Origin: Gammaproteobacteria bacterium
GTDB lineage: Bacteria; Pseudomonadota; Gammaproteobacteria; JAKDMP01
DNA: 64,000 nt
Reading direction: 5' to 3'
NCBI GenBank assembly: GCA_050739575.1
Contig: JBOIBN010000001.1
Coordinates: 26,608 to 90,607, forward strand
The notes beneath the pieces are model-generated. The model made no database searches, was not told the origin of the DNA, and worked only from the letters and a program-made list of their open reading frames with translations. The translations under genes were made by a program, and so were the position numbers. Of this stretch, positions 67 through 25,611 are shown in pieces (position 1 is the stretch's first letter; each line of letters begins with the position of its first letter).

Positions 67-360
67 ATGAGTAGCCGCATGAGTATTCGAGCCCTTCCAA
101 AAAAAGCCGGTCTTTTGGAGGACTGGCATCCGGCCGACATCGTGGCCGAGCTGCGCAAGGCGGGCTGGAGCCTACGCAAGTTGGCGATCCATCACGGCTA
201 TAAGGCACCGAGCACACTGAAGAACGCCATTGCCGCGCCGTGGCCGAAGGGCGAACGCCTGATCGCCGAAGCCATCGGCGTCAAGCCCCAGGACATCTGG
301 CCTTCGCGCTTTGCCGAAAGGGCGCGGCGTAAAGCCGAAGCCCAGCGGGAAGCCGCGTGA
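67..360 (+). CDS. ner: Ner-like DNA-binding protein (Mu Ner / Nlp family)
   Basis: The ORF segment DWHPADIVAELRKAGWSLRKLA...WPKGERLIAEAIGVKPQDIWPSRF is collinear with Mu Ner (DWHRADVIAGLKKRKLSLSAL...HWPKGEQIIANALETKPEVIWPSRY). The start may be the second ATG at 79. Confidence 0.85.
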   Translation: MSSRMSIRALPKKAGLLEDWHPADIVAELRKAGWSLRKLAIHHGYKAPSTLKNAIAAPWPKGERLIAEAIGVKPQDIWPSRFAERARRKAEAQREAA

Positions 361-459: not shown

Positions 460-945
460 ATGCCGGGGAAGAATTGGAAACGGGCGCGGGCGCGCTCGAT
501 TTGCCACGGGATAGAACTGTGTCTGGACTTCGCCAGGGAGAAAGGGAACCTTTCCGTCGATCGCGTCGCGGATTTGATGGGGCTTCCGAATAAGTGGGTA
601 CTTTATAAATGGATGGAGTCGGGGCGCATGCCGGCGAACCTAATTCCGCCCTTCGAGCATGCCTGCGGGGCCTCGTTCGTGACCGATTATCTCGGCGGGG
701 TGATCGGCGGCGTGCTGATCAAGATGCCGACGGGCCGAAAGTCGGGACCGGAAGAGGTCGCCGCCCTTCAGCACTCATTCGCCGATGCGATCCAGCAGCT
801 CGCACAGTTCTACGACGGCAAGCGCGGCGCCGAAGAGACGATTGACGCCCTGACCTCGGCGCTCCGCGGCGCGGCCTGGCATCGGGAGAACGTCGCGAAG
901 CTCGCGACGCCGGAGCTGGCGCTCTTCGATGAGGCGCAGACATGA
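460..945 (+). CDS. Phage early-region protein with a central HTH, possibly a CII-like regulator
   Basis: Strong Shine-Dalgarno (AAGGAAGG) 5 nt upstream of the ATG. There is an ATGA overlap with the transposase start. The HTH-like segment VDRVADLMGLPNKWVLYKW weakly resembles lambda CII. Mu itself has no gene at this position. Confidence 0.5.
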   Translation: MPGKNWKRARARSICHGIELCLDFAREKGNLSVDRVADLMGLPNKWVLYKWMESGRMPANLIPPFEHACGASFVTDYLGGVIGGVLIKMPTGRKSGPEEVAALQHSFADAIQQLAQFYDGKRGAEETIDALTSALRGAAWHRENVAKLATPELALFDEAQT

Positions 946-2960
946 AGGAATGGTTTTCGGCGGCAGAATTGGCTGGATTGCCGGGGATGCCAATGACACC
1001 TCGCGGAGTGAACATGGTTGGTGATCGCGGTGGCATACAACGGCGAAAAAAGACGTTTGGAAAGGGATGGGAATATAGTTTTTTGACTTTGCCGGGCGAG
1101 ACGCAGGCGGCTGCGCTCAAGAAGTTCGGGGCTGCGATGCTGCCGGCGCCGGCGGATGGTGACGACGTACCGGCGGCGACGCCGACGAGATCGTCCCGGC
1201 GCGCCGAATTCAAATACGATCCGGAGGCGCTGTGGGCGTGGGCGGCAACGCGGCCGCAGCGGGCGCGCGATCGCGGGGTCGAGCGCGCGGGGCTGCTGAT
1301 GCAGGCGATGCGGCTCGCTGAGGCCGGGCAGGCGTTCGGCGTTGCGATGGAGACGGTCGCGCGGGCGAACGGGATCCCGGTCGTGAATTTGCGGAACTGG
1401 TTTTATGGCGTGAACGGGCATCCCGGCGCGCGGCTGTATGCGCGCAACGACTGGGCCGCGATGCTGGTGCCTTCGTACTGTGGCCGCACGGCGCGGGCCG
1501 AGTGCAGCGAGGAGGCGTGGGACGTCTTCAAGGCGCTGTATCTGCGGCGGCGGGCGCCGAATTGTTCGACCTGCTACGAGCAGGTCGCGAAGATCGCCGC
1601 CGCCAAGGGCTGGGACTGGCCGTCGCAGGCGACGATCCTGCGCCGGGTGCGGGAGCTGCCGCGCGCGGTGCGGGTGCTGGCGCGCGAGGGCGCGGAAGCG
1701 CTCGACCTTTTGATGCCGGCGATGACGCGCGACCGCAGCGGCTTCCACGCGATGGAGGCGGTAAACGGCGACGGCATCGAGTGGAAGCGCTATTGCGTGT
1801 GGCCGGACGGCGAAGTGGCGCGGCCGCACACGTGGATTACGCAGGATCTGTACAGCAACAAGCTGCTCGCGTGGCGCACGGATCGCAGCGAGAACAAGGG
1901 CATGTTCCGGCTCGCCTATGGCGACCTGGTCGAGCGCTTCGGAATCCCGATCTTCTATTACATCGACAACACGATGGCGGCGGCGAGCAAGTGGATGACC
2001 GGCGGCACGCCAAACCGGTACCGCTGGCCGATCAAGGACGAAGACCCGATCGGAATCATGCCGCAGATGGGCACCGAAGTGCGTTTCGTGCAGCCCGGTC
2101 ACGGGCAATCCAAACCGATCGAGCGCGCGAACCGGGAGCTGCGCGAGCGGGTGGATGTTCATCCGCAGTTCGAGGGACGCGGGACGCCGGGACGGCCGAT
2201 CCCGATTGCCGACTTCGTGACGTTGATGGAGGCCGAATTCGCGGCCTATAACGCGAAAAGCGCGCGCCGGGTGCCGAACGCGGCCGGGCGCAGCTTCGAC
2301 GAGACCTTCAACGCGAGTTATTCGAGCGCGCCGATCCGCAAAGCGACCGCCGAGCAGCGGCGCCTGTGGCTGCTGGCCGCCGAGCGCATCTATGCTCAAC
2401 GCGACAACGGCTCGATCGTGCTCGGGCGCGGCCCGCACGGGGAGAACCGTTATTGGAGTGAAGCGCTGGCGCCTTATGCCGGGCAGCATGTCGTAGTGCG
2501 CTTCGATCCGCAGGATTTCAGTCGGCCGGTGCACGTGTACGAGGTCGGCGGCCAGTACGTCGGCGAAGCGCCGTGCACCTGGCAGGCCGGTTTCGCCGAT
2601 GCCGAGTCCGCACAGACCTATCACCGCGAGCGTTCCCGCTGGAAGCGCGACAGAAGGAACGCGCTGGAATCCGAGAAGCGCATGACGACGGCCGCGGCGG
2701 CTTCGCTGATCGAGACACCGCAGCCGGAAGAGCCGCCGGAATCGAAGGTGGTGCAGTTGATGCGCCCGCGGCTGCAACGCGCGGCCAATCACGATGTTGA
2801 CCATGACGACGAGGACGGCGAAAACGAACAGCACTTCATGGCCGCAATGGCGAAATTAACGGGTCCAGTGCGCGATCTGGAGGCCGAACGCGAGGAACGC
2901 GAGCGACATTTCGGGGCCGCCGTCGCGCAGATGAAGGTGCCGGGGAGTTCGTTGTTGTGA
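942..2960 (+). CDS. MuA-family DDE transposase (transposase A)
   Basis: The N-terminus WFSAAELAGLPGMP is like Mu-like A proteins. The catalytic region HAMEAVNGDGI, RFGIPIFYYIDNTMAAASKWMTGGTPNRYRW and VVVRFDPQDF aligns to MuA [44 protein letters not shown] and VVVRFDPQQL. Confidence 0.9.
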   Translation: MKEWFSAAELAGLPGMPMTPRGVNMVGDRGGIQRRKKTFGKGWEYSFLTLPGETQAAALKKFGAAMLPAPADGDDVPAATPTRSSRRAEFKYDPEALWAWAATRPQRARDRGVERAGLLMQAMRLAEAGQAFGVAMETVARANGIPVVNLRNWFYGVNGHPGARLYARNDWAAMLVPSYCGRTARAECSEEAWDVFKALYLRRRAPNCSTCYEQVAKIAAAKGWDWPSQATILRRVRELPRAVRVLAREGAEALDLLMPAMTRDRSGFHAMEAVNGDGIEWKRYCVWPDGEVARPHTWITQDLYSNKLLAWRTDRSENKGMFRLAYGDLVERFGIPIFYYIDNTMAAASKWMTGGTPNRYRWPIKDEDPIGIMPQMGTEVRFVQPGHGQSKPIERANRELRERVDVHPQFEGRGTPGRPIPIADFVTLMEAEFAAYNAKSARRVPNAAGRSFDETFNASYSSAPIRKATAEQRRLWLLAAERIYAQRDNGSIVLGRGPHGENRYWSEALAPYAGQHVVVRFDPQDFSRPVHVYEVGGQYVGEAPCTWQAGFADAESAQTYHRERSRWKRDRRNALESEKRMTTAAAASLIETPQPEEPPESKVVQLMRPRLQRAANHDVDHDDEDGENEQHFMAAMAKLTGPVRDLEAEREERERHFGAAVAQMKVPGSSLL

Positions 2961-3265
2961 AGCATAAAACTGATGACGAACTCTACCGCACCATGCAACT
3001 GATGTTCGAGGAGAAGCGCGCCAACTTCAGGTGCACGCCGACAGATGGGAAATGGTGGCGCGATTACCTGCGCGGCCTGGATCAAGCAACGAGACGAAGG
3101 CTGATCTGGATCAATAGAGCCCATATGAACAGTGCTATCTACGGCGCGCTGGCCGGCATTCTCGATGAGATCGATGAACAACGCGGGCAAAAAGCGGCGC
3201 CTACGAAGCCGGATTTGCGCCTGATTATCAGTAATCCAGAGGATTCGCCGCCGAGCGGCGGGTAA
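2957..3265 (+). CDS. Hypothetical phage early protein (102 aa)
   Basis: The GTG start overlaps the transposase stop (GTGA). I recognise no family. It is positioned between A and the B-like gene. Confidence 0.45.
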   Translation: MKHKTDDELYRTMQLMFEEKRANFRCTPTDGKWWRDYLRGLDQATRRRLIWINRAHMNSAIYGALAGILDEIDEQRGQKAAPTKPDLRLIISNPEDSPPSGG

Positions 3266-3332
3266 AGGTGCGCCGGGCTGACACCCGGCGCGAGTTGGGC
3301 CGCGAGGCCCGGTTGGACACAGGAGATTTTAC

Positions 3333-3932
3333 ATGGCTGTAACGGCTATTTCAATGCGGTCCATCTCGGATCGTAATTTGCGCGGCGAGGTTGCCGCGCT
3401 TATTGCGAGCGAGAACGGCCCGTCACAGGCGACCTTGTCGCGCGAGGCGGGACTGTCGCCGAGCGCGCTCAACCAGTGGCTGCGGGAACGCTACGCGGGC
3501 GATAACCTCGCGGTCGAGATCAAGCTTTCGCAGTATCTCGAAACCTATTACGCCCGGCTCGCGCGCGAGAAGGCGTTGCCGCAGGCTCCGGGCTGGATTG
3601 CGACGCCGACCTCGGAGCGGATCCTGCAGACGCTCGGCTATGCGCAGATCGCGGGCGACATCGTGATCGTGTACGGCGGCGCGCTCGACGAGCAGGACTG
3701 GGGCATTGACGGCGCCGGCGCGCCGGTCGCCATACGCTCGGAGAATCTGTATTCGGGCGCCATCGATGCGCTGAAGGTCGGCTTGTGGGGCCTGCGCTGG
3801 GAGCAGCGCTTCACGCTCGATGCCGTTGATCCGGCGACGCTCGCGCCGTTCCTCACTTTCCACGAAGATACCGACATGGCGCCGGCCGACGGCGTGATCG
3901 ACATGTCGGAAACCGACGAACTGCAGCAATAG
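3333..3932 (+). CDS. MuB-like protein, N-terminal HTH domain retained, Walker A degenerate (probable non-ATPase remnant)
   Basis: LNQWLRERYAGDNLAVEIKLSQYLE aligns to MuB ISSFINDKYNGDNERVSQMLQRWLE. The segment aligning to the MuB P-loop IAVVCGNPGVGKTEAA reads IVIVYGGALDEQDWGI. The protein is 199 aa against ~312 aa in MuB. Confidence 0.55.
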   Translation: MAVTAISMRSISDRNLRGEVAALIASENGPSQATLSREAGLSPSALNQWLRERYAGDNLAVEIKLSQYLETYYARLAREKALPQAPGWIATPTSERILQTLGYAQIAGDIVIVYGGALDEQDWGIDGAGAPVAIRSENLYSGAIDALKVGLWGLRWEQRFTLDAVDPATLAPFLTFHEDTDMAPADGVIDMSETDELQQ

Positions 3933-3940: not shown

Positions 3941-4162
3941 GTGAACGAATTCAACATCAAGCCGGCAAGCGATGCAGTGAGGGTGCGCGATCCGCGCACC
4001 GGCCGCGCACTCGCCAAGGACGGCGAGACCAAGCCGCGCAACAGCTACTGGCTGCGGCGCCTGCGCGACTGCGACGTGGTCGAAGTCGCCGCGTCCACTT
4101 CATCCGCATCCAAGGCCGCTCCCGTCAAGGCAGACGCCGAACAGAAAGGAGGCAAGTCGTGA
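3941..4162 (+). CDS. Small conserved protein found upstream of the sheath gene in Mu-like tails (DUF2635-like)
   Basis: GGAG lies 7 nt upstream of the GTG start. The motif VRDPRTGRAL...YWLRRLRDCDVV is typical of the small gene preceding the sheath gene in Mu-like prophages. Its stop overlaps the sheath start. Confidence 0.5.
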   Translation: MNEFNIKPASDAVRVRDPRTGRALAKDGETKPRNSYWLRRLRDCDVVEVAASTSSASKAAPVKADAEQKGGKS

Positions 4163-5625
4163 GCATCGAGTTCAATACCATTCCGGGCGACGTCCGCGTT
4201 CCCGGCGTCTATGTGGAGTTCGACTCCAGTCAGGCGCAGACCGGCCTCGCCGACGACAGCTATACGATCCTGGTGATCGGGCAGCGGCTTGCGAGCGGCA
4301 CCGTCGCGGCCGGCGTCCCGACTGCGGTGCAGAGCGCGAGTCAGGCGCAGCAATTCTTCGGAGCGGGCTCGATGCTCGCCAACATGCTCACGGCGCTCAA
4401 GGTCGCGAACCCGTACACCGCGTGCGTCGCGATCGCACTCGATGACGACGAGGCGGCCGTCGCAGCGACGGTGACGGCCACCATTACCGGGCCGGCGACG
4501 GGCGCCGGAACGCTGGCAATGTACATCGCCGGTATCGCCGTGAAAATCGCAGTGGCTTCCGGCGACAGCACGACGACGACGGCAACTGCGCTCGCGGCGG
4601 CCATCAATGCGAACGGAAACCTTCCCTTCACGGCCGGCGCCGCCGCCGGCGTGGTCATGCTCACGGCGCGCAACAAGGGCGTCGCCGCGAACTACATTGA
4701 CGTGCGCCTGAACTATTACGCGGGCGACGTGACTCCGGCCGGCGTGGCGGTGGCGATTGCCGCCGGAACCGCGGGCACGACCAATCCGGACATCACGACC
4801 GCGATCGCGGCAATGGCGGACGACTGGTACCAGGCGATCGCGATGCCCTATACCGATTCCGCGAACCTCGCGGCACTGGAGCTAGAGCTGATTTCGCGCT
4901 GGGGCGGCACGCGTCAGATCGACGGGATTGCCTATGCCGGCTACCGCGGAACAGCGAGCGCGACCGACACCTTCGGCGCCACGCAGAATTCGCCGTTCGT
5001 ATCGTGCATGGGCACTTCGATCTCGCCCACTCCGCCGTGGATCTGGGCCGCAGTCTACGCCGGCGTCGCGGCGGCATCGCTCGCGACCGATCCGGCGCGC
5101 CCGCTGCAGACGCTCACGCTTCCCGGCATATTGCCGCCCGCACGGGCCGATCGCTTCACCTTCGACGAGAAGAATCTCCATCTGCACAGCGGCATCGCGA
5201 CTTTCAACACAGCGCCGGACGGCACCGTGCAGATCCAACGCGAAGTCTCGACTTATCAGTTCAACGCCAATAAAATCGCCGACACTTCATTCCTGGACAT
5301 CACCACACCGGCGACGCTCTCCTACTTCCGCTTCACCACACGCGCGGCCATGACGGCAAAGTTCCCGCGCGAGAAACTCGCGAGCGACGGCACGACCTAT
5401 CCTCCGGGCGCGAACGTGGTGACGCCTTCGGTTCTGCGCGCGGAGCGCATCTCGATCGCCCAGGACTGGGTGAATGCCGGGCTGATGGAAGACCTCGCGC
5501 AATTCAAACAGGATCTGGTAATCCAGATCAATGCGACCGATCCCAACCGGGCCGATTCGCTCAGCTCGCCGAATCTCGTCAATCAGCTCCGCATCATGGC
5601 GGACCTGGTCGAATTCATCCTTTAA
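4159..5625 (+). CDS. Contractile tail sheath protein (Mu gpL-like)
   Basis: The N-terminus MSIEFNTIPGDVRVPGVYVEFDSS...ILVIGQRLASG is collinear with Mu L [24 protein letters not shown]...GLFIGQKLSGG. Confidence 0.9.
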   Translation: MSIEFNTIPGDVRVPGVYVEFDSSQAQTGLADDSYTILVIGQRLASGTVAAGVPTAVQSASQAQQFFGAGSMLANMLTALKVANPYTACVAIALDDDEAAVAATVTATITGPATGAGTLAMYIAGIAVKIAVASGDSTTTTATALAAAINANGNLPFTAGAAAGVVMLTARNKGVAANYIDVRLNYYAGDVTPAGVAVAIAAGTAGTTNPDITTAIAAMADDWYQAIAMPYTDSANLAALELELISRWGGTRQIDGIAYAGYRGTASATDTFGATQNSPFVSCMGTSISPTPPWIWAAVYAGVAAASLATDPARPLQTLTLPGILPPARADRFTFDEKNLHLHSGIATFNTAPDGTVQIQREVSTYQFNANKIADTSFLDITTPATLSYFRFTTRAAMTAKFPREKLASDGTTYPPGANVVTPSVLRAERISIAQDWVNAGLMEDLAQFKQDLVIQINATDPNRADSLSSPNLVNQLRIMADLVEFIL

Positions 5626-5637: not shown

Positions 5638-6000
5638 GTGGCAAACAAATTATTCGGACGCGCAGTGGTGGCCTACGACGGCAACCAACTGCGCGTGGAC
5701 AAGGGCGCGAAGCTCAACACCGGCGGCATCAAGCGCAACACCGTGGTCGGGATGCAGGTCGAGGGCTTCGCCGAGGAGGCCGTCGAGGCATCCGTCGAAG
5801 TCTCCATCTTCATGGATGCGAGCACCGACCTCGACGCGCTCAACGCCGCGGAGGACGTGACCGTGCTGTTCACCGCCGACAGCGGCCAGCAGTACGTGCT
5901 CTCGCATGCGTGGCTCGCCGAACCGACCGAGGCCACGGCCGCCACCGACGGCGGCAAGGTGCCGCTGAAGTTCTGCTCGGCCAGCGCGGAGAAACTCTGA
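5638..6000 (+). CDS. Tail tube protein (Mu gpM-like)
   Basis: A 120-aa ORF directly after the sheath gene, with a GGAGG Shine-Dalgarno. Size and position match Mu M. Confidence 0.75.
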   Translation: MANKLFGRAVVAYDGNQLRVDKGAKLNTGGIKRNTVVGMQVEGFAEEAVEASVEVSIFMDASTDLDALNAAEDVTVLFTADSGQQYVLSHAWLAEPTEATAATDGGKVPLKFCSASAEKL

Positions 6001-6299
6001 TGGCGAACGTGAAGGGAACGCTCAAGCACGGGCTCAAGGTCGGCGACAAACTGCACAAGGATTACGAGCTGCGCGAGTCCACCACGCAGGACATGTTCGA
6101 TGCGGAGGCGGATGCGCCGAGCGATCGGCGCCTGGCGTTCCAGGGCGCGCTGCTCGCGCGCCAGATCGTCAAGCTCGGCGACCTCGGCGGCCCGCTCGAC
6201 TTCTCGCTGATCGGCAAGCTGCATCCGGAAGACTTCACGGATCTGATCGCCGATGCCGCCGCAGCGGATGCAGCGGGAAAAAACGCACCGGCGAGCTGA
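6001..6299 (+). CDS. Tail assembly chaperone (Mu gp41-like, lambda G-like)
   Basis: A 99-aa acidic ORF between the tube and tape measure genes. The ATG at 6001 overlaps the tube stop. It ends just after a G GGA AAA AAC slippery run. Confidence 0.7.
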
Positions 6300-6445
6300 A
6301 GGGCCTGCATCAAAAAACCCTTTTGCTCGCGCGCAAAACCGGCTGGACCCGAAGCGAGATTCTTGGGCTGTCACGTTCGGAGTTCGATTTTTATGTAGAG
6401 ACGCTGATCGAGTGGAGCACAGAGGAAGACGAATACGATGAGTGA
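6001..6445 (+). CDS. Predicted -1 frameshift fusion product of the tail assembly chaperone (G-T-like)
   Basis: Slippery heptamers G GGA AAA and A AAA AAC are in the zero frame at 6275-6284. The -1 frame runs open for 55 codons (KKRTGELKGLHQKTLLLARKTGWTRSEILGLSRSEFDFYVETLIEWSTEEDEYDE) and ends at 6445, overlapping the tape measure start. Confidence 0.55.
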
Positions 6446-8408
6446 CAGCACCCTCGATCTCGCCATGCGCATCACCGCAATAGATGTCTTCAGCGGGGTG
6501 CTGAATCGCTTCCGCACGCAGATCATGGGCGCGGGGGCGCAGTCCAAAGAATTGATGCGCGACTACGACCTCGCGCTTTCCAACATCCGCAAGGGGTTCA
6601 ACGGGCTCGCAGCCGCCAAGTACGGCTTCGACAAAATGAAGCCCGCGCTCGACAACGCTGCGAAGCTCCAGCAGGCGACGCTTGCCTTCTCGCAGATCCT
6701 GCAGGGCGCCCATCCGAACGCGAAGAAGCTCGCCGATCAAATGCAGCGCGTCAGCGACAATGCCATCAGCGTGGCGCGGCACATGAAATACAGCGCCATC
6801 GAGGTCATGGACGTCTCGCGGCTGCTCTACAAGTCCGGCATTCCGCTCGCGGCCATTCTCGACCGCGTGGGCAAAAGCGGCAAGACCATTTACGGCCTCG
6901 CCTACTACACCGAGGCGCTCGCCGAGACGCAGGGCACGACGCCGCAAGAGACGGCGGCGCAGATCGGCAACGTCGGCCATGCGTTCCGGTTGAAGCCGAA
7001 CCAATATGCGCGCGCCATCAACCTGATCACGCAGGCGCAACCGGTCGCATCCGGTTCGCTCACCGAGCTGTTCCACAATCTGGCCCAGTCGGGCGCCATT
7101 ACCAAATACCTCAGCCATACGAGCCTGCTCAGCCTGCTGGCGGGACTTAAAACGGTAGCGCCGCTTGGTGAAGAGGGGGGTACCGATTTCGCGACCATGC
7201 TGGAGACCTTCGGATCCATGCGGGTGCGCGGCAAAAAATATCTGCAAAAATATGGACTGAATTTTTACGATAAACAGGGCCAATTCCTGGGCCTCGATAA
7301 ATCGTTAGACGTGCTGCGTAAAACCATTGCGGCGCGGCACTGGACGCCAGAGCAGATAAACAAGATTTTGGGACCCATCTTCGGGCAACAGGGACTCAAG
7401 GCCATCGCGCTGATGACCGCGCCGAACGCGCCGGGAGTGAAAAGTTACCAGGAAATCAAAAAATCGATCACGGAGCAGGCCAACCTCAGTCAGCAACGGA
7501 TCGAGTGGGAGAAGGGTTACCTCGCGCAGCTTTCCGAGCTGAAGACTACGGGGCAAACGTTGAGCGCGGTGCTCGCAACGCCGGTCCTGAGCCCGACCGT
7601 CGGCGTGATGAAAACGCTGAACGACTGGATGGGCGATTTCACGCTCGCCGCCCATCATCACAAGTCCATCGGCATCGCCGCGACGGCCGCAGGGGGCGCC
7701 GCGCTTGCCGCCGCCGTCGGCTATTCGGCCTGGAATCTGATCAAAACGATAAAGCCCGGCAGCCACGTACTGCGCAGCCTGCTCGGCAAAGGCGGGGGCT
7801 TGGCCGCCCGCATCGGCGAAGGCAAGCTTATCCAAAAAGTCGCCGGGGTGCCGTCGGTCTTCGTGGTGAATATGCCCTCCGGTGGGCTTCCGGCGCCGGC
7901 CGGAGGCATCCCCCCGGGCGGCTCACGGATTTTGCTGCCGCCATCATTCGGCGAGAGAGGCGCGGCGATCGCGGCAGGCAGCATTGCCGCGCGCCTGAAG
8001 GGCTTCTTGCTGGCGCCGGCGTTGGCATCCATCAGCTCGGCAAAAGGATTGAAGGCGACCGCGGGCGCGGCCGGGAAACTCGTCGGTGCATTGGGACTCG
8101 CCGCCAGCGCCGGTTGGGCATTAGGCAAGGCGCTCGACCGCATCCCCGCCGTGCACAGTTTCTTCGACAAGGAGTTCCAGAACAGTCTGGCGAATGCAGT
8201 GATCACGGCTGCTTCCGGCGCGAACAAGAATGCGGTCGAATTGACCCGCGGCGCGCAACTGGAGCGCGCATGGCGCACGCAGCACAAGGACTTCAAGGGC
8301 GCGATCAAGATCACGATCGATAGCAAGGGCAAAGCGCATGTGACCGAGCTGCGCAGTAGCACACCGCGCGTGAACCTGAGCGTCGGCCATGCGATGAGCA
8401 CGCCGTGA
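6438..8408 (+). CDS. Tail tape measure protein
   Basis: 656 aa, helical and Gly/Ala-rich, located after the chaperone and its frameshift extension. Confidence 0.85.
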   Translation: MSDSTLDLAMRITAIDVFSGVLNRFRTQIMGAGAQSKELMRDYDLALSNIRKGFNGLAAAKYGFDKMKPALDNAAKLQQATLAFSQILQGAHPNAKKLADQMQRVSDNAISVARHMKYSAIEVMDVSRLLYKSGIPLAAILDRVGKSGKTIYGLAYYTEALAETQGTTPQETAAQIGNVGHAFRLKPNQYARAINLITQAQPVASGSLTELFHNLAQSGAITKYLSHTSLLSLLAGLKTVAPLGEEGGTDFATMLETFGSMRVRGKKYLQKYGLNFYDKQGQFLGLDKSLDVLRKTIAARHWTPEQINKILGPIFGQQGLKAIALMTAPNAPGVKSYQEIKKSITEQANLSQQRIEWEKGYLAQLSELKTTGQTLSAVLATPVLSPTVGVMKTLNDWMGDFTLAAHHHKSIGIAATAAGGAALAAAVGYSAWNLIKTIKPGSHVLRSLLGKGGGLAARIGEGKLIQKVAGVPSVFVVNMPSGGLPAPAGGIPPGGSRILLPPSFGERGAAIAAGSIAARLKGFLLAPALASISSAKGLKATAGAAGKLVGALGLAASAGWALGKALDRIPAVHSFFDKEFQNSLANAVITAASGANKNAVELTRGAQLERAWRTQHKDFKGAIKITIDSKGKAHVTELRSSTPRVNLSVGHAMSTP

Positions 8409-8410
8409 TG

Positions 8411-8749
8411 TCAGGGCGTTACGAACATCGCGCCGGTCCAGTAGGAATAGACCTGGCCTTTCGGTCTGATCTTGACGAGACGGCCGTCCGTGGTCATGTC
8501 TTCGATATAGACCGCCTCTCCCGACGTGAGCGCAACGCATTGGCCCGCGTTGACGCCTTCGGCAAGAAGCTCTTCGGCGGTCTGCTTGTCGCCCTCCGCC
8601 GCTATGGTTGCGATCTTGTCGAAAAGCGCCTGAGACTGGCATCCGGCGACGTTCGCGTTGATATGGCTCGGTCCTGTCGGAGCGGCTTGCGCGGACGTGG
8701 CCGAAGCCAGCGCCGCCAGCGCGGCTATGAAAAAGGCTTTACGCATCAT
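8411..8749 (-). CDS. Small secreted protein (signal peptide, 2 Cys), antisense moron inside the tail operon
   Basis: It exactly fills the 380-bp gap between the tape measure and N genes on the opposite strand. The Shine-Dalgarno is GAGGGGGA. The signal peptide is MMRKAFFIAALAALASATSAQA. GC3 is high, like that of its neighbours. Confidence 0.6.
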   Translation of the reverse strand: MMRKAFFIAALAALASATSAQAAPTGPSHINANVAGCQSQALFDKIATIAAEGDKQTAEELLAEGVNAGQCVALTSGEAVYIEDMTTDGRLVKIRPKGQVYSYWTGAMFVTP

Positions 8750-8787
8750 TTGAATCCCCCTCGAATGGTGGCCCGGAGCATAGCACC

Positions 8788-10029
8788 GTGAGCTGGCGCG
8801 ATCAAATGCTGCCGGGCTCCTTCCGCGGCGCGCCGTTCCTGATCAAGGTGGCGCGCACGGGCGTCGGGCGGCGCACGGAGCTGCATCAGTATCCGCTGCG
8901 CGATACGCCGTGGGCGGAGGATCTTGGGCGCCACGCGCGGAGCTTCACGGTGGAATGCTTCGTGCTCGGGGCGGACTACATGAGCCAGCGCAATGCGCTG
9001 ATGGATGCGCTCGAACAGGGCGGCGCGGGCACATTAGTGCATCCGTATCTGGGGACGAAGAGCGTCGTCGTTAACGGCAGCGCGGACATCACCGAGGACA
9101 CCGCCGAGGGCGGGATGGCGCGCTTCTCGATTCCGTTCGCTGAAAGCGGCCAGAAGCTCGAGCCGGCGGCGGCGACCGATACGGCCGGTGCGGTCGCCGA
9201 TCAGGCGTCAGCGGGCAATGCGGCGCTTGCGACGCAGTTCAGCGACGACTTCGCGACCGAAGGGTATCCGCAGTGGGTGCAGGACGCGGCGAGCGCGAAC
9301 ACGAACGAGTTGACGGACACGCTCGATTCGCTGCGGAGTTCCATTCCCGGCATTCCCGATTCCGTGGTGGCGTTCGATTCGCAGCTCGCGGAATTCAGCC
9401 AATCGCTCGCGAGCCTGATTCGCACGCCGTACAACCTGGCGGCGTCTGTGGTGAGCTTGATCGCGGGCCTCGGCACGATCGCCGAGCAGCCGCTGGATGC
9501 GGTGAATCTCTATTCCACGCTGTCGACCTGGCAACCCTCCGGACCGCTGCCGGCGGCGACGACGCCGGCGCGTGCGCAGGCGGCAGCGAACCAGCAGGCG
9601 CTGACGGATCTTGTGCAGCGCACGGCGATCATGCAGCAGGGCGCGGCTGCGTCGCGGGTGCCGGCGCAGAGCGGCACGGATACATCGGTGGACGGCACGC
9701 CGCTCGCGGGTTACGACACGGCCGATGTGGCGCTTGCCGTGCGCGATGCGATTACCGGTTCGATCGATACGCAGCAGCTCACGGCGCCCGACGCGGTATT
9801 CGATGCGCTGACGGATCTGCGCGCGGCCGTGGTGACCGACTTCGATGCGCGCGCGGGAGCGCTCCCTTCGCTGGTGACTTTCACGCCGGCGACGGATCTG
9901 CCGGCGACCGTGATCGCCTGGCGTCTGTACGCGGATGCGAGCCGCGATGCGGAGATCGTGCAGCGCAACGCCGTGGTCTATCCCGGAGCGGTGCCCGGCG
10001 GCGCGCCGCTGGAGGTGGCCAGTGCCTGA
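8788..10029 (+). CDS. DNA circulation protein (Mu gpN-like)
   Basis: 413 aa with a GTG start and GGAG Shine-Dalgarno. It sits at the Mu N position, after the tape measure and before P. Confidence 0.8.
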   Translation: MSWRDQMLPGSFRGAPFLIKVARTGVGRRTELHQYPLRDTPWAEDLGRHARSFTVECFVLGADYMSQRNALMDALEQGGAGTLVHPYLGTKSVVVNGSADITEDTAEGGMARFSIPFAESGQKLEPAAATDTAGAVADQASAGNAALATQFSDDFATEGYPQWVQDAASANTNELTDTLDSLRSSIPGIPDSVVAFDSQLAEFSQSLASLIRTPYNLAASVVSLIAGLGTIAEQPLDAVNLYSTLSTWQPSGPLPAATTPARAQAAANQQALTDLVQRTAIMQQGAAASRVPAQSGTDTSVDGTPLAGYDTADVALAVRDAITGSIDTQQLTAPDAVFDALTDLRAAVVTDFDARAGALPSLVTFTPATDLPATVIAWRLYADASRDAEIVQRNAVVYPGAVPGGAPLEVASA

Positions 10030-11062
10030 GCTGCAGCTCAAGGTCGGCGGCCAGATCTACAGCGGCTGGGAAGAGGTGCGCGTCTCGCGCGGCATAGACC
10101 AGCTTGCCGGCTCCTTCGAACTGAAACTCTCGGAGCGTTTCGACGGCACGAGCACACTGCGGCCGATCCGCTACGGCCAGAGCGCGACGGTGCTCGCCGA
10201 CGGCGAGACGGTGATGACCGGCTTCATCGATACGGTCGCGCCGGACTACGACGACACCACGCACTTCCTGAACGTGTCCGGGCGCGATGCGACCGGCGAC
10301 CTGGTGGACTGTGCGGCGATCCACAAGTCGAGCGTGTGGACGAATCAATCGCTCGCGCAGATCGCCTTCGACCTGGTGCAGCCGTTCAAGGCCGGCCTCG
10401 AGGTGATCGCCGACGTCGGCGCGCCCTTCCCGACCTGGCGGATCGAGCCGGGCGAAACCGTATTCGAAAATTTGGACCGCGCCGCGCGCTACCGCGGCGT
10501 GCTGCTGACTTCCGACGGCCTCGGCAATCTCGTGATCACGCAGCCGGGCGCGGACGTCGCACCGGCGGCGCTGGTGCTCGGCCAGAACATTCTCCGCGCC
10601 CAGGGCCATTCCAGTTCGCTCGAACGCTTCGCCGATTACATCGTGCGCGCGCAGCAGGCGGGCACCGATACGGTCTATGGCACGACTGCCGCTTCGCCGA
10701 GCGGCGAGGCGCTCGATTCCGCCGTCGGCCGCTACCGCCCGACCGTAATCGTGGCCGAGGATATGGCCGACCAGGCCGCGTGCCAGACGCGCGCCAACTG
10801 GCAGCGTACGGTCGCCGCGGCGCGTTCGCAGCAGATCGTCTATACCGTGAGCACCTGGCGTGCGGACGGACGCCTGTGGCAACCGAATGCGTTGGTGCCG
10901 GTGACCGATCCCTTCATGGGCATAGACGAGCGGCGCCTGATCTCGCGCGTTGACTTCGTGCTCGATTCGCAGGGCTCGCGCACCGAGCTGACGGTGGTGC
11001 CGCGTCACGCCTACGATCCGCAGCACCTGCCCGATCCGCCGGCGGGCGGAGGGTTGTTCTGA
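10022..11062 (+). CDS. Mu gpP-like tail/baseplate protein (phage late control D family)
   Basis: GRDATGDLVDCAAIH and RYRGVLLTSDGLGNLV align to Mu P GRDKTADLIDCAAVY and RARGVLMTSNAAGELV. The GTG start at 10022 overlaps the N stop (GTGCCTGA). Confidence 0.75.
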   Translation: MPELQLKVGGQIYSGWEEVRVSRGIDQLAGSFELKLSERFDGTSTLRPIRYGQSATVLADGETVMTGFIDTVAPDYDDTTHFLNVSGRDATGDLVDCAAIHKSSVWTNQSLAQIAFDLVQPFKAGLEVIADVGAPFPTWRIEPGETVFENLDRAARYRGVLLTSDGLGNLVITQPGADVAPAALVLGQNILRAQGHSSSLERFADYIVRAQQAGTDTVYGTTAASPSGEALDSAVGRYRPTVIVAEDMADQAACQTRANWQRTVAAARSQQIVYTVSTWRADGRLWQPNALVPVTDPFMGIDERRLISRVDFVLDSQGSRTELTVVPRHAYDPQHLPDPPAGGGLF

Positions 11063-11628
11063 TGGAACTCGCACGCGTGCTCGCGCGGCGCATCCGCATG
11101 ATCGCGGGCCGCGCCGTGATCAATCTCGCGAACGACGCGCTCAAGGTGCAGAGCGTGCAGATCTCCGCACTCGATACCGAAGTGCTGCAGGCGCAGCGCT
11201 TCCAGGAGTACGGCTTTACGTCGGTGCCGCTCGCCGGCGCCGAAGGCATCTTCCTCGCGATCGCCGGCGTGCGCGGCCACACGATCGTCATCGCGAGCGA
11301 CGACGGGCGCTATCGGCGGAAAAATCTGCAACCCGGCGAAGTCGCGCTCTACACCGACGAGGGCGATTACATTCAGCTCGCGCGCGGCAAGAAGATTCAA
11401 GTCGTGAGCGGCGGCGAGGTGGACGTGACCGGACCGAACGTGAACGTGATGGCCACGAGCAAGATCACCTGCGACACGCCGGAGCTGCACTGCACGGGCA
11501 AAATTACCGCCGCCGACGAGATCAGCTCCGACGTCGATTGCATTTCCGCCGGCGTGTCGGGCAAGGGCCATTTGACGACCGGCGTGCAGAGCGGCGGCGA
11601 CTTGTCCGGCCCTCCGGAGGCGAGCTGA
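11062..11628 (+). CDS. Baseplate assembly protein V / central spike (Mu gp45-like)
   Basis: 188-aa ORF at the position of Mu gp45, following P and preceding gp46/gp47. Confidence 0.7.
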   Translation: MELARVLARRIRMIAGRAVINLANDALKVQSVQISALDTEVLQAQRFQEYGFTSVPLAGAEGIFLAIAGVRGHTIVIASDDGRYRRKNLQPGEVALYTDEGDYIQLARGKKIQVVSGGEVDVTGPNVNVMATSKITCDTPELHCTGKITAADEISSDVDCISAGVSGKGHLTTGVQSGGDLSGPPEAS

Positions 11629-12074
11629 TGGACGCCGCATTGATCTGGAACCCGAACGGCTATGCCGACATTGCGCTTTCCGGCGGCGATCTCGCGCACG
11701 ACGACGGACTCGAAACCGCGGTGATCCTGTCGCTGTTCTGCGATGCGCGCGCCGATGCGGACGACAGCCTCGACGCCGGCGCGGATCCGCGCGGCTACTG
11801 GGGCGACAGCTTCGCAGCCATTGCGGGCGACGTGACCGGCTCGAAGCTGTGGCTGATCGTGCGCCAAAAGCAGCTTGCCGACGTCGCCAACCGCGCCCAG
11901 GAATATGCGGCGGCCGCGCTCGCATGGCTGGTCGAGGACGGCATCGCGGCGACGGTGAACGTGATCGCCGAGTGGATTGCACAGGGCACGCTCGCGCTGT
12001 CGATCGCGATCGCCAAGCCCGGATCGAACGACGTCTTTCAACGCCGTTATCAGTACGTTTGGAGCGCCCTTTAA
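11628..12074 (+). CDS. Baseplate protein (Mu gp46 / P2 W-like)
   Basis: 148 aa. The start overlaps the gp45 stop (TGATG). It is the gp46-position ORF immediately before gp47. Confidence 0.7.
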   Translation: MDAALIWNPNGYADIALSGGDLAHDDGLETAVILSLFCDARADADDSLDAGADPRGYWGDSFAAIAGDVTGSKLWLIVRQKQLADVANRAQEYAAAALAWLVEDGIAATVNVIAEWIAQGTLALSIAIAKPGSNDVFQRRYQYVWSAL

Positions 12075-13156
12075 TGCCGTTTTCACGCCCCACGCTCGCT
12101 ACGCTGATCGACCGCATCGCCGGCGACATCGAATCGCGCCTGCCCGGCTCCGACGCGCGCCTGCGCCGCAACCTGCTGACGATCCTCGGCCGCGCCGAGG
12201 CCGGTGCGACACACGGGCTCTACGGGCACCAGGAATGGATCTCGCTGCAGGTCATCATCGATACCGCCGAAAACGACTGGCTGGAGCGCTGGGCGGCGAT
12301 CTGGACGGTTGGGCGCAAGGGCGCCGGTGCCGCGCAGGGCAACCTTTTACTCACCGGCACGAACGGCGCGATCCTGCCTGCCGGCAGCAGCTATACGCGC
12401 AGCGACGGCGCGCTCTACACCACCGATGCCGATGCCACCATCGTCGCCGGTACCGCGACTGTAGCCGTGACCGCATCGCTTGCCGGCGTCGCCGGCGACA
12501 CCGATGCGAATTCCACGCTGACGCTGGTGTCGTCCGTGACCGGCATCGATGCGGCGGCGACGGTGGATGCGGACGGCATCGAGGGCGGCGCGGACATCGA
12601 GGACGACGATTCGCTGCGCGTGCGCCTGCTCGATCGCATCGGCGCTCCGCCGACCGGCGGCAGCGATCCCGATTACGTGGCGTGGGCGGAAGAAGTCGCC
12701 GGCGTCACCCGCGCCTGGGTGTATCCGAAAGAGCAAGGCCCCGGCACGGTGGTGGTGCGCTTCGTGACCGACGACGCGCCGGGCGGCTTGATTCCCGACG
12801 ATGCGACCGTGCAGGCGGTCGCCGCCAGCATCGTCGCCAAGCGCACGGTGACGGCGGACGTGTTCGTGTTCGCGCCGATCGCCGATCCGCTCGATCTGAC
12901 CATTCAACTGGTTCCCGACACTATCGCGGTGCGCGCGGCCGTCACCGCCGAGATTGCCGACATGATTCTGCGCGAGGCCATCCCGGCCGGGACGCTCAAT
13001 GGCAGTGTGCAGGTCGGCGAGATCATCCGCAGCCACATTGACGAGGCGATCTCCATCGCTGACGGTGAGACCGATCACACGTTGCTGGTGCCGACCGCGA
13101 ACGTGCAGCCGGCCATCGGCCACATCGTGACGCTGGGAACGATCACATGGGCCTGA
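12074..13156 (+). CDS. Baseplate J-like protein (Mu gp47)
   Basis: 360-aa ORF whose length and position (after gp46, before gp48) match Mu gp47. Confidence 0.8.
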   Translation: MPFSRPTLATLIDRIAGDIESRLPGSDARLRRNLLTILGRAEAGATHGLYGHQEWISLQVIIDTAENDWLERWAAIWTVGRKGAGAAQGNLLLTGTNGAILPAGSSYTRSDGALYTTDADATIVAGTATVAVTASLAGVAGDTDANSTLTLVSSVTGIDAAATVDADGIEGGADIEDDDSLRVRLLDRIGAPPTGGSDPDYVAWAEEVAGVTRAWVYPKEQGPGTVVVRFVTDDAPGGLIPDDATVQAVAASIVAKRTVTADVFVFAPIADPLDLTIQLVPDTIAVRAAVTAEIADMILREAIPAGTLNGSVQVGEIIRSHIDEAISIADGETDHTLLVPTANVQPAIGHIVTLGTITWA

Positions 13157-15669
13157 GCGCGGATACCTACGCCGCCACCGAACGTGCGCTGCTGCCGCCC
13201 GGCCGCGCGCTCGCCGATGGCGGCGAAGGCACGCTCACGGATCTGCTCGAGGCGCTCGCCCAGGAATTCTCGCGCGTGGATGCGAGCGGCGACGTGCTGC
13301 TGCAGGAAGCCTTCCCCGACACCGCCGTCGAGCTGCTTCCGGATTGGGAGCGCATCGCCAAACTGCCGTCCGCCTGCACGCCGGCCGGCCAGACGACGGC
13401 GCAGCGGCAGGCGTCGGTGGTGCGCAAACTCACGGCCAACGAAGCGCAGACGATTGCGTTCATCGTTGCACTCGCCGCGTCCTACGGCTATACGATCTCG
13501 ATCGTGGAGCGCCGGGCGCTGCGCTTCGGCTACAACGCCTATTGCGGCTACCCGTTCGGAAGCTGGGACTGGCAATTCGTGTGGGAGGCGCACAGCGAAG
13601 GCACGCCGATCGAAATGCTGTATTTCGACACGGGCCATTGCGGCGACGATTTCGGCGCCTTCGGCGATCCGACGATGGAGTGCCGCCTGAAGACCGGCAA
13701 CCAGAGCCACATCATTCCGCGCTTCTGCTACGACTTCACCGGCTACAACCTGTTCCAGTATCGCGACATCGGTCGGCTGTTCTGGATCGGCCGCGCCGGA
13801 TCTCTGTTCCAGGATACTGCCGGCACGGTGCCCGTCACTGCCTACGGCCAGACCGTGGGCTTGATTAAAGACCTCTCAGGTCACGGCGGCGATCTCATGC
13901 TCACGGTCGGGCCGGGCGCCGTGTACTCGCAGGACGAGAACGGCTACGACTGCCTGGTGAGCGCGGGCGATTCGATGTACAGCGGCTCCGATGCCGATCT
14001 GCCGATGGGCGCGAACAACGTCCACATTGCCGCCACGGTGGCCTTCGATCAGTTCACCAAAAACGCGAGCTGCTTCAACTACGGCACCAGCGCGATCCTC
14101 GAAGAGCGCGGCATCGGTCTCGACAATTCGACGCCGCAGAAAATGACCGCGAATATCTACAACGTCCAGGCCGACGGCCAGTCGCCGATCGCAGGCCAGC
14201 CTTACGTGATGGAGTGCGATGTGCTCTACCACACGGTCAGCCTGTATATCGACGGAGTCTTCGAGAGCAGCGCCACCGGCGTCGTCAATACGGTCAGCGG
14301 CGCACTCACGCTGTTCGGTTCGGCGTTGCCGGGAAAACTGTTTACCGGAAAGTTTTACGGCGGCGTGATCTTCGGTGGGAGTTCCTGGCCGCGCGCGGCC
14401 GTGACGCGCTGGCTCGGAGCGCTCGCGGGACAGACGTTTCCCGGCTATGACCTGCTGCTGCTCGACCAGGCTTTCGCGCGCAGCTCTCAGGCGACGTGGA
14501 CGGACCCGGCCGGGATCCTCCAGACGGCGAGCGCCAATGCGGCCCGCTATAACAATGATCGCGACACCGGCGAGGCTTACGGACTGCTGATCGAGGAGCC
14601 GCGTACCAATCAGATTACCGATCCGTTCAATCCGACGACGTCGAATTGGGTGCAGACCAATGCGGCCGCGGCGCTCGCCCAGGGCACAGGCCCCGACGGT
14701 TCCAATTCGCTCATCAAGCTCACGACCGATGTCGTCGCGACCGTCGAACCGCACATGTACAACATCACCTGCCTGATCCCGGACCCCGCGCCCGACGTCA
14801 TCAGCGTTCTGACGTGGGTGCAGCGCGGCAACTACGACAACGGTGCGTCGCCGACGATCCGGATGCATTCCAAACAGACGCCGGCGCCTGGAGCGGGCAC
14901 GCCGGTCGATGTGAGCGCGCGTATTCTGCAAGGCCCCGGCAGCGTAGATATCGCCGACTTTGACGCCGGGCTGGTGCAGGTATACGGGCTGTCGCAGACC
15001 GAACCCACGTTGATCGAAACACGCACGATGATTCCCTTGATCGCTGGTCAGACCTACATCCTCACCTGCCGCAACCGCGATCAGGCCATCGGCGCCCAGG
15101 TGGGCGACACCACCTTTTGGTACGCCCAGCAGTTCGAGTTCGCCGATTTCGCGAGCACGTTGATTCCGAGCGGCGTCGCCACGCGGCCCGGCGACGATGT
15201 CGCCATTCCCCCGACTTGGGCGGCGACCGAAGCCGGGTGCCTGTGGGGCGAATTCCGCGTCCGGAATCTGCCGCCGAATCCGTATCCGACATCTTCGGGC
15301 ATCGTTGCAGCACTGGCATACACGGCCGCGAACACCTTCATCGGAGTCAATGTGGATTCCAACGGCCAGTTGATTATTACCGGCCGTCTTGCCGGCAGCG
15401 CTTATCAGCAGGCTTATACGCCGAACGGAAGCATTGTCGCGGGGCAGAGCTACAAATTCGCCGCGTCCTGGTCCCCGACCGCGTTTCGCCTTTCGCTCAA
15501 CGGTGCGGCCGTGATCAGCGCTGCGCAAACGCAAGCGCTGCCGACCGCGCCCAGCCAGTTCTTCGTCGGTTCGATTTCCGGCACCTATTACCTCAACGGC
15601 ACCGTGCGTTCGCTGCGCTATGCCCCTTTCGCGCCCGCCAACGCGCAGCTGCAGGCGCTCGCTTCGTGA
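13147..15669 (+). CDS. Mu gp48-like (DUF2313) N-terminal domain fused to a long tail-fibre / receptor-binding region with two concanavalin/LamG-like segments
   Basis: The first ~190 aa match Mu gp48. The protein then continues for ~650 aa with LYIDG and LNGTVRSL lectin-like signatures. It is 840 aa in total. Confidence 0.65.
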   Translation: MGLSADTYAATERALLPPGRALADGGEGTLTDLLEALAQEFSRVDASGDVLLQEAFPDTAVELLPDWERIAKLPSACTPAGQTTAQRQASVVRKLTANEAQTIAFIVALAASYGYTISIVERRALRFGYNAYCGYPFGSWDWQFVWEAHSEGTPIEMLYFDTGHCGDDFGAFGDPTMECRLKTGNQSHIIPRFCYDFTGYNLFQYRDIGRLFWIGRAGSLFQDTAGTVPVTAYGQTVGLIKDLSGHGGDLMLTVGPGAVYSQDENGYDCLVSAGDSMYSGSDADLPMGANNVHIAATVAFDQFTKNASCFNYGTSAILEERGIGLDNSTPQKMTANIYNVQADGQSPIAGQPYVMECDVLYHTVSLYIDGVFESSATGVVNTVSGALTLFGSALPGKLFTGKFYGGVIFGGSSWPRAAVTRWLGALAGQTFPGYDLLLLDQAFARSSQATWTDPAGILQTASANAARYNNDRDTGEAYGLLIEEPRTNQITDPFNPTTSNWVQTNAAAALAQGTGPDGSNSLIKLTTDVVATVEPHMYNITCLIPDPAPDVISVLTWVQRGNYDNGASPTIRMHSKQTPAPGAGTPVDVSARILQGPGSVDIADFDAGLVQVYGLSQTEPTLIETRTMIPLIAGQTYILTCRNRDQAIGAQVGDTTFWYAQQFEFADFASTLIPSGVATRPGDDVAIPPTWAATEAGCLWGEFRVRNLPPNPYPTSSGIVAALAYTAANTFIGVNVDSNGQLIITGRLAGSAYQQAYTPNGSIVAGQSYKFAASWSPTAFRLSLNGAAVISAAQTQALPTAPSQFFVGSISGTYYLNGTVRSLRYAPFAPANAQLQALAS

Positions 15670-17213: not shown

Positions 17214-17654
17214 ATGCTCGCCTTTAACAAGTTCAACGCCTTCGTACTTGCCGTCGCGACGAAAAAGATCGATCTCAATGCAGACACGCTCAAGATCATG
17301 CTCACGGATACGGCGTCGGTGGTGACCAATTCCGTCAAGACCGACATCACCGAAATATCCGCCGGCAACGGCTACAGCGCCGGCGGCGCTGCCGTCGGAA
17401 GCAATTCCGCCTCGCAGACCTCCGGCACCATGAAGGTGGTCGGCGACGCCGTGACCTTCACCGCCAGCGGCGGCGCGATCGCGCAGTTCCGCTACCTGGT
17501 GCTTTACGACGATACCGCCGCGAGCAAGGATCTGATCGGTTGGTGGGACAACGGCAGTGAAGTCAATCTCGGCGACGGCTCGAGCTTCACGCTCGGCGAC
17601 GATTTCAGCGGGGATAACTGGGATGCCACGACGCCGCTCTTTACGCTGGCGTAA
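17214..17654 (+). CDS. Hypothetical small beta-rich tail-region protein
   Basis: 146 aa, with an AGGAGA Shine-Dalgarno 6 nt upstream. Confidence 0.4.
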   Translation: MLAFNKFNAFVLAVATKKIDLNADTLKIMLTDTASVVTNSVKTDITEISAGNGYSAGGAAVGSNSASQTSGTMKVVGDAVTFTASGGAIAQFRYLVLYDDTAASKDLIGWWDNGSEVNLGDGSSFTLGDDFSGDNWDATTPLFTLA

Positions 17655-19214: not shown

Positions 19215-19516
19215 ACGTGGCCACCATCTACATCGGCCGAGACAATCCGTTCAAATTGCAGGCGTCGGAAGACGGCGCCTCGATCGACCTGAGCGGCGTC
19301 ACCAAGATGGCGGTACGCGTCGGTGCAGCCGATACCGATTCCGATGCGAATCCGATACTCTTCGACTGGAGCGCCGGCGACGGCGTCGTCAGCATAATCG
19401 TCGGGCTCGTCCCCCAATTGAGCGCAGGCGCGAAACGGCTGCGTCTCATCGCCTATTCAGACGCATGGCCCGATGGGATCGTGCTGGGCGATCTTCCCGT
19501 CGATGTCACCGCGTGA
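19211..19516 (+). CDS. Hypothetical protein (101 aa)
   Basis: The ORF overlaps the upstream stop. The start codon is uncertain (TTG or GTG). Confidence 0.3.
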   Translation: MNVATIYIGRDNPFKLQASEDGASIDLSGVTKMAVRVGAADTDSDANPILFDWSAGDGVVSIIVGLVPQLSAGAKRLRLIAYSDAWPDGIVLGDLPVDVTA

Positions 19517-19544
19517 TTGGCCTCATCAACTTTGGAGCATCCCC

Positions 19545-20689: not shown

Positions 20690-20941
20690 GAACGTTGTTT
20701 GCGCAACGTCTTCGCCGGCCTGGCGATGGAAAGTATCCCGATCCGGTACACGGTGGGCGGCGGCGCCGGCGTCGAACGCCAGGAACTGATCATCCGTTCG
20801 CGCCCCGACGGCTGGACCGGTCAGGGGCGCCTTTTATGACCCTTTACAGGCCTATAATTCGTCGTTCAGGGGTCGCCGCCTGCCGTGAAATTTCTTCGCA
20901 AACCAAGTGATCCAGATTCGCAAACCAAGTGAACGCTTACA
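20690..20941 (+). repeat. Mu-type right end (attR): three transposase-binding repeats, two direct and one inverted, with a terminal ...CA
   Basis: TTCGCAAACCAAGTGA occurs at 20895-20910 and again at 20917-20932. An inverted copy, CGTTGTTTGCGCAACG, lies at ~20690-20706. The reverse complement of the terminus, TGTAAGCGTTCACTTGGTTTGCGAA, resembles the Mu L1 site TGTATTGATTCACTTGAAGTACGAAAA. Confidence 0.6.
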
Positions 20942-21100
20942 CCTCCGATTTATTCAGAGGTTCCGTGTGGTGCATGGACGCACCACCGTGAATCGAACGC
21001 GTAAGTGCTTGATTCGGCGTAAGACGAGTCCGGGCATGTGCCGGACTCATCGCCTCTGAGCAATTCACGGATGAATTGATCAGAGTTTCCTAAGACTGCT
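20942..21100 (+). repeat. Intergenic ~160-bp repeat element, copy A, abutting the prophage end and upstream of liuB
   Basis: About 85% identical to copy B. It contains the hairpin GTCCGGGCATGTGCCGGAC and the palindrome CTCTGAGCAATTCACGGATGAATTGATCAGAG. Confidence 0.6.
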
Positions 21101-22768: not shown

Positions 22769-22847
22769 ATAAACCGTCTTTACATTCCGGCTCCGTTATT
22801 CCGGCGAAAAGCGGGATGACGAAATTTAGCCATGAACAGAAACAATC

Positions 22848-23645: not shown

Positions 23646-25611
<1,966 letters not shown>

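Follow-up and report, generated by a model that had tools for sequence, protein, structure and literature searches.

The window analysed here, a stretch of 64,000 nucleotides from a gammaproteobacterial metagenome-assembled genome (MAG), begins inside a Mu-like transposable prophage. The left end of this element lies 804 nt upstream of the window and was read from a contig of a second assembly, GCA_974167825.1 (hereafter L009), which is identical to the window over 13,265 nt. From end to end the element measures 21,745 bp (21.7 kb), compared with 36.7 kb in Mu. Its features are listed below, with positions in the window unless L009 is named and with the basis of each assignment in parentheses.

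L009 3881-3915, 804 nt upstream of the window: left end, with TGGTTTGCGAAT-type repeats
L009 3881-3890 and window 20941-20950: direct repeat ACCTCCGATT, 10 bp, flanking both ends
32-59: promoter-like site TTGACT-16-TATACT, upstream of ner
67-360, plus strand: Ner-like early regulator, HTH_35 (PF13693, 3.7e-25; phrog_769)
460-945, plus strand: CII-like activator family protein (phrog_101)
942-2960, plus strand: MuA-type transposase, 672 aa (Pfam HTH_Tnp_Mu_1, HTH_Tnp_Mu_2, DDE_2 and Mu-transpos_C)
2957-3265, plus strand: orphan ORF of 102 aa (orf102) between A and the B-derived segment; its GTG overlaps the A stop codon
3333-3932, plus strand: putative hybrid ORF, ATG start, 199 aa (ORF listing and raw sequence)
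3333-3683, plus strand: B-derived segment (B'), codons 1-117 of a MuB homologue (hhalign, phrog_296, tblastn, PDB)
3675-3686, plus strand: probable deletion junction GGC GGC GCG CTC, most likely between 3681 and 3684, where the alignments swap partner
3684-3932, plus strand: gp37-derived segment ('gp37), last 82 codons and natural stop of a Mu gp37-type tail-terminator gene (hhalign, phrog_490)
3941-4162, plus strand: gp38 homologue, DUF2635, starting 8 nt past the stop of the 199-aa ORF (PF10948, 2.7e-17)
4159-5625, plus strand: tail sheath, full length (Pfam; the sheath of relative L005 aligns over aa 1-497 of 498)
5638-6000, plus strand: tail tube, full length (Pfam)
6000-15669, plus strand: gp41, tape measure, gp43 (DNA_circ_N), gp44, gp45, gp46, gp47 (Baseplate_J) and gp48-fibre (Pfam, PHROG, L009 gene calls)
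17214-17654: phrog_644 protein, preceding two large ORFs of the right end
20895-20950: right end, with two TTCGCAAACCAAGTGA repeats (20895-20910 and 20917-20932) and the terminus at ~20940 (blastn-short and direct reading)

The TGGTTTGCGAAT-type repeats stand 13 nt from each terminus and in inverted orientation, and as judged from the sequence they are candidate transposase sites. Mu makes a 5-bp duplication, whereas the flanking repeat ACCTCCGATT is 10 bp long, which could represent either a 10-bp duplication or one of 5 bp with five chance matches. In L009 the order to the left of the window is host genes, left end, a 124-aa minus-strand gene at the position of the repressor, and ner. The host site is a leucine/isovalerate catabolism cluster (L009 257-3877; window 21158-26547), with genes for an ELFV-type dehydrogenase, an acyl-CoA dehydrogenase and a thiolase to the left of the element in L009 and, from 21158 on its right, genes for methylcrotonyl-CoA carboxylase (MCCase) beta, enoyl-CoA hydratase, MCCase alpha and an HMG-CoA lyase-like protein; the prophage insertion may thus split a catabolic operon. 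A further contig, from the Logan assembly of SRR27067710 (L010; 21,855 bp), comprises by coordinate arithmetic the element together with ~74 bp of left and ~36 bp of right flank. Its extent indicates that the assembly graph breaks near both ends of the element, as might happen if the sample also contained an empty-site allele or additional copies.

The catalytic triad of the transposase is intact, D277, D342 and E394 aligning with D269, D336 and E392 of Mu A, and every ORF of the tail and baseplate, from gp38 through to the fibres, has its full length. The gp48 baseplate-wedge homologue (13147-15669, plus strand) carries a long C-terminal extension that includes a Laminin_G_3/ConA-like domain, and the resulting 840-aa fusion presumably combines wedge and receptor-binding fibre. 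Several further ORFs, orf102 among them, had no match in NCBIfam, Pfam or PHROGs: a moron-like ORF of 111/112 aa with a signal-peptide-like N-terminus on the minus strand between the tape-measure gene and gp43 (8411-8749), and two plus-strand ORFs inside the right end, one Ala/Gly-rich, of 516 aa, with an internally repeated ~AAGxxFxxxGAxAG motif (17664-19214), the other of 401 aa (19473-20678), for which a look-up of encoding contigs returned no record. The only match of orf102 among 5.8 billion proteins is itself, its GC3 of 0.66 is lower than ~0.81, and in two relatives with a Mu-like early region (L001, L006) nothing separates A from B. A perfect 8-bp GC-rich hairpin, GCGCCGGG-ctgaca-CCCGGCGC (3268-3295), with no T-tract behind it, sits in the spacer that divides orf102 from the 199-aa ORF.

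The two parts of the 199-aa reading frame

The 199-aa ORF is preceded by a Shine-Dalgarno motif (GGAG) 7-8 nt 5' of its ATG. Among 5.8 billion proteins its own copy from the source MAG (P0001) is 100% identical, as a start-site variant of 192 aa, and a look-up of contigs encoding P0001 returned no record. The preliminary description, made from the sequence alone, took the ORF to be a homologue of MuB that keeps the N-terminal helix-turn-helix (HTH) and has lost the Walker A P-loop. For the N-terminal part this reading is borne out by several comparisons. In hhalign, columns 12-118 of a MuB profile match aa 11-117 with a probability of 99.87 (E 6.6e-32), and the match stops at A117. BLASTP aligns residues 2-101 of Mu B to aa 10-116 (28% identity, E 3e-11), and phrog_296 ('DNA transposition protein') matches aa 24-116 at 1.8e-17. 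The PDB matches by phmmer are the MuB filament 8xvb (E 2e-6) and the NMR structure of the MuB N-terminal domain 2mqk (E 0.0033); the latter is also the top Foldseek/PDB match of an AlphaFold2 (AF2) model over aa ~10-80 (TM 0.82, rmsd 1.8 Å). The model rests on an alignment of nine sequences and is confident for aa ~10-80 only, so that the fold search informs on the N-terminal domain alone; with so shallow an alignment, aa 100-199 have a predicted pLDDT below 50. The first 117 residues are thus homologous to Mu B (MuB, Mup04, the AAA+ activator of target DNA), with ~50% identity to closer homologues, and they share with it the N-terminal HTH fold and the place of the gene downstream of MuA in the early operon.

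These 117 codons comprise the HTH domain, a linker and the first strand of the AAA+ core, and they end with ...IVIVYGGA, immediately before the Walker A motif GxGK[ST]. In the Walker A column the homologues read YGGAGLGKT and Mu B CGNPGVGKT (GNPGVGKT being aa 100-107), whereas the 199-aa ORF reads YGGALDEQD; the absence of the P-loop, first noticed as GGALDEQD in place of GNPGVGKT, is therefore real. A search for the Walker B motif and sensor residues, which had been proposed as a check, leaves that absence standing: aligned with MuB homologues, the ORF has no Walker A, Walker B or sensor/arginine residues and no counterpart of their LLIIDEAQHL block, and no AAA family of Pfam matches it even at E<=1. 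The C-terminal DNA-binding domain MuB_C (PF09077), present in P0002-P0006 and P0009, is likewise missing by Pfam, so that in comparison with MuB everything from Walker A onwards is gone. As described earlier, the ORF has 199 aa against the 312 aa of Mu B; six full-length MuB homologues (314-322 aa, AAA_22 and Phage-MuB_C), recovered from a word-indexed set of 5.8 billion proteins, cover its first half only.

The remaining 82 residues have a different affinity. The preliminary description had considered the residues downstream of the lost P-loop to be still alignable with MuB (VAIRSENLYSGAIDALKVGLWG against WMITITPSCASVLECLTELAFELG), a claim that fails, since only 2 of 22 positions are identical by eye, BLASTP finds no match to Mu B there and hhalign gives aa 118-199 a probability of 0.05 against a MuB profile built from seven sequences. 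By contrast, columns 100-180 of a gp37 profile match aa 119-199 with a probability of 99.6 (E 4.8e-24, 57% identity). The same is seen with PHROGs, where positions 105-187 of the 190 in phrog_490 match aa 116-198 (3.9e-9), or positions 106-187 in a separate run (7e-10); Mu gp37 itself matches phrog_490 at 5e-56. The closest gp37 homologues share the motif NLYSGAID, and in the family alignment including Mu gp37 the residues RNL do not vary. Two proteins of 180-181 aa from the set of 5.8 billion cover the second half only, one of them in PF08873 (Phage_Mu_Gp37), and the closest gp37 relative among the best 150 of 444 matches in a second set (P0010) is 67% identical over its aa 89-178. The link to PF08873 is indirect, through phrog_490, P0007, P0008, P0010 and Mu gp37, because Phage_Mu_Gp37 does not match the C-terminal 85 aa even at E<=10 and direct BLASTP against Mu gp37 is negative.

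The last 82 residues are accordingly homologous to Mu gp37 (Mup37; PF08873, phrog_490), being 57-67% identical to the nearest members, and they have the same stop codon and the same place directly upstream of gp38, sheath and tube. A full-length terminator of this family has a body of ~180 aa, of which the first ~96 are lost here; in tblastn the gp37 proteins of relatives L005 and L008 align to the window only by their aa 97-180 and 89-178, respectively. In Mu, gp37 is the hexameric tail terminator, whose C-terminal beta-hairpin binds the last ring of the sheath (PDB 9khy/9lj8; PMC11915804). Its designation as 'portal protein' in phrog_490 is rejected as a misannotation on the strength of these structures and the accompanying paper. 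The label is attached to Mu gp37 (L004, NC_000929.1, 20954-21502) both in RefSeq and in PHROGs, and it spreads to homologues.

The profile-profile comparison that had been suggested earlier as a means of verification thus relates aa 11-117 to MuB and leaves aa 118-199 apart. A complete lack of relationship to MuB, which the preliminary description named as one result that would overturn it, is found for the 82 C-terminal residues and not for the 117 N-terminal ones. Similarly, a comparison with the B genes of related prophages, also proposed there, yields a match to the first half only: in tblastn of the 199-aa ORF against the relatives' loci, B genes match query positions 13-117 and a gp37 gene matches positions 116-199.

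The junction, its uniqueness and the missing block

The point at which the two affinities meet is sharp. DNA identity to the L008 gp37 gene, which encodes P0010, is 48% to the left of nt 3684 and 76% to the right, and on the right it runs on through the stop codon and through the ribosome-binding site and GTG start of gp38. Both parts show coding-type GC3 in the same frame (B' 0.81, 'gp37 0.83), and a short CGGCG-type microhomology at the junction is possible. In a phmmer scan of 1.84 billion representative proteins, which gave 444 matches, P0001 is the only one among the best 150 to span both halves; within these 150, matches on the B side end at query positions 115-118, with a few strays to 119-135, and those on the gp37 side begin mostly at 110-121.

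Genome contigs yielded no loci related to the 199-aa ORF, and viral contigs a single weak and unrelated match (L003). The 24-mers flanking the junction have no exact match in metagenome or viral contigs; the B-side 24-mer has one chance match in genome contigs (L007, a Solirubrobacterales MAG), where tblastn finds nothing. No intact relative with more than 70% amino-acid identity was found, and the parent, the exact breakpoint and a possible microhomology are accordingly deduced from homologues that are 50-67% identical.

Relatives indicate what would normally lie between B and gp37. The order in L001 and L006 is A, B, kil, GemA, Mor, lysis genes (SLT), gp27 and terminase; in L005, L008 and Mu, gp37 has Gp36 and Phage_tail_S upstream of it and DUF2635, sheath and tube downstream. 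The equivalent of the gap from B to gp37 amounts to 17.6 kb in Mu and to ~19.7 kb when L001 and L005 are combined, and adding these 17.6-19.7 kb to the 21.7-kb element restores a Mu-like size of ~40 kb. When proteins of the relatives were used as tblastn queries, terminase, portal, MuF, protease, capsid, gp36 and tail-S had no match in the 64-kb window, and neither had GemA, Mor, SLT, Kil and DUF3164. Relocation of the missing genes to another place in the window is rejected on the same evidence.

One of the relatives deserves a separate remark. In the early region of L001, an intact Mu-like prophage, an apparent diversity-generating retroelement lies between DUF3164 and GemA (12709-15376), with two Lcl_C-domain proteins, a bAvd-like protein and an RVT_1 reverse transcriptase.

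Probable origin and consequences of the hybrid

Taken together, the split homology, the sharp breakpoint, the synteny on two sides, the absence of the intervening genes, the shortness of an element that nevertheless has two ends and the uniqueness of the fusion argue for an origin by one deletion. A single internal deletion of ~17-20 kb in a Mu-like transposable prophage would have begun at the codon that immediately precedes Walker A in B (...VYGGA|GLGKT) and reached about codon 97 of gp37, joining codon 117 of B, by chance in frame, to approximately that codon. The ribosome-binding site and start codon of B would now drive a 199-aa hybrid that ends at the stop of gp37. In our view the ORF is very probably such a B'::'gp37 hybrid at a prophage deletion scar and not a MuB with a mutated P-loop; a MuB whose P-loop has been eroded by substitutions is rejected, as the similarity to MuB stops abruptly at A117 and the remainder is gp37. 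Of the earlier suggestion of a decaying pseudogene in a defective element, the defectiveness of the element and the destruction of B hold; the motif has not eroded, however, and the protein is not a truncated MuB.

The earlier suggestion had an alternative branch, a DNA-binding derivative of MuB devoid of ATPase activity. Here, the ORF would be a domesticated protein in which the HTH was kept for DNA binding or regulation and in which the C-terminal part is a diverged remnant of MuB. A well-conserved N-terminal domain that is predicted to fold like that of MuB is consistent with this, as are the intact frame, the good ribosome-binding site and the coding-type GC3, but according to hhalign the C-terminal 82 residues derive from gp37 and not from MuB. 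Moreover, no second example occurs among the matches listed from the sets of 5.8 and 1.84 billion proteins, and hence there is no sign of selective retention; since the architecture is confined to the ORF's own copy among the best 150 of 444 matches, the derivative finds no support. What the retained domain would contribute is also unclear: in the cryo-EM structure of the filament the N-terminal domain takes no part in DNA binding, and its role is unsettled even in Mu (PMC11292022). We regard domestication as very unlikely.

An artefact would arise if the join of B to gp37 were a false path in the metagenome assembly of an intact prophage. This must be weighed for a sequence that comes from a MAG, of which all copies are 100% identical and possibly derive from one sample, and for which the Logan contig has about the length of the element, the assembly graph breaking near its ends. 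Yet the junction is found alike in three assemblies from different pipelines (the 99-kb NCBI MAG contig, GCA_974167825.1 and the Logan assembly of SRR27067710), and to the left and right of the element the contigs lead into one host locus. The junction carries no repeat, its flanking 24-mers have a single chance match (on the B side) in the genome, metagenome and viral contigs searched, and the 64-kb window contains no second copy of B or of gp37; a search sensitive to exact matches only found no contig with the missing 17-20 kb. A false join is on this evidence extremely unlikely. Since the three assemblies may stem from the same sample, they are no proof of fixation of the allele in a population.

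No greater probability attaches to a functional headless remnant, tailocin-like or a co-opted tail cluster. In such a remnant the early promoter would, through the fusion, come to drive the tail genes, and the sheath-binding C-terminal hairpin of the terminator would be supplied by the hybrid. The full-length tail and baseplate ORFs from gp38 to the fibres agree with this, as does the lack of a terminator-like site on the plus strand from the promoter-like site (32-59) as far as the tail genes, but a recent deletion explains the intact tail ORFs equally well. The element has neither gp36 nor the tail-completion gene (Phage_tail_S), and the N-terminal part of the terminator that forms the ring is gone; searches detected no lysis gene and no late activator in it, aa 100-199 are modelled with pLDDT below 50, and the fusion is unique to this genome among the best 150 of 444 matches. 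An R-type tailocin would be self-sufficient, its tail cluster comprising a terminator, tail-completion proteins, a regulator of its own and a lysis cassette; the present element has a truncated terminator, no tail-S and, with two right-end ORFs left without a family, no detected lysis gene.

If the ORF is indeed a hybrid left by a deletion, several consequences follow for the protein and for the element. MuB requires the ATP-dependent formation of filaments on DNA for its function (PMC11292022). As judged from its sequence, a hybrid without the ATPase core and MuB_C should be unable to bind or hydrolyse ATP, to form MuB filaments, to capture targets or to confer cis-immunity. A hexameric terminator ring should likewise be beyond it, because the terminator body is missing. 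The hybrid is therefore most likely a non-functional by-product. Its expression and some residual activity, for instance from the HTH domain, are possible, given the intact frame, the coding-type GC3 in both halves and the good ribosome-binding site.

Without heads, lysis genes and late activators, the remnant should not be able to make virions. It could, by analogy, still move at a low frequency and independently of MuB, since MuA and both ends look intact and Mu lacking MuB still transposes; in vivo, loss of MuB reduces Mu transposition by about two orders of magnitude, to ~1% of the wild type (PMC7350765). In these respects the element resembles defective Mu-like prophages and the laboratory mini-Mu and delta-B Mu, which likewise keep MuA and both ends and have lost B function and late genes, and it differs from mini-Mu and delta-B Mu in that the deletion is natural, the B'::'gp37 junction is in frame and the tail/baseplate module is complete. 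That we are dealing with a still-mobile natural 'mini-Mu', in which the tail module is rewired into the early operon and the hybrid is expressed and useful, we hold to be highly improbable. Were it true, the hybrid might use the terminator's C-terminal hairpin, which binds the sheath, to cap headless tails or nucleate them; alternatively, the N-terminal domain of the hybrid might interfere with the MuB of incoming Mu-like phages.

The hybrid ORF is a case of ordinary decay of a Mu-like prophage and implies neither a new type of MuB nor new biology. Its main value lies in a correction, as an apparent MuB without P-loop proves to be, with the confidence expressed above, a chimeric ORF formed where a large deletion in a prophage has joined two genes. 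Such an ORF is named 'hypothetical protein' by annotation pipelines, and by eye it is tempting to see in it a novel non-ATPase MuB. As reconstructed here, the locus would also offer a clean natural case in which a single in-frame step has removed the block of head, lysis and late-regulation genes of a Mu-like phage in its entirety and has left the transposase, the tail module and both ends in place. Should sister strains with the intact prophage exist, the locus could serve to date the decay of the prophage and help to study its mechanism.
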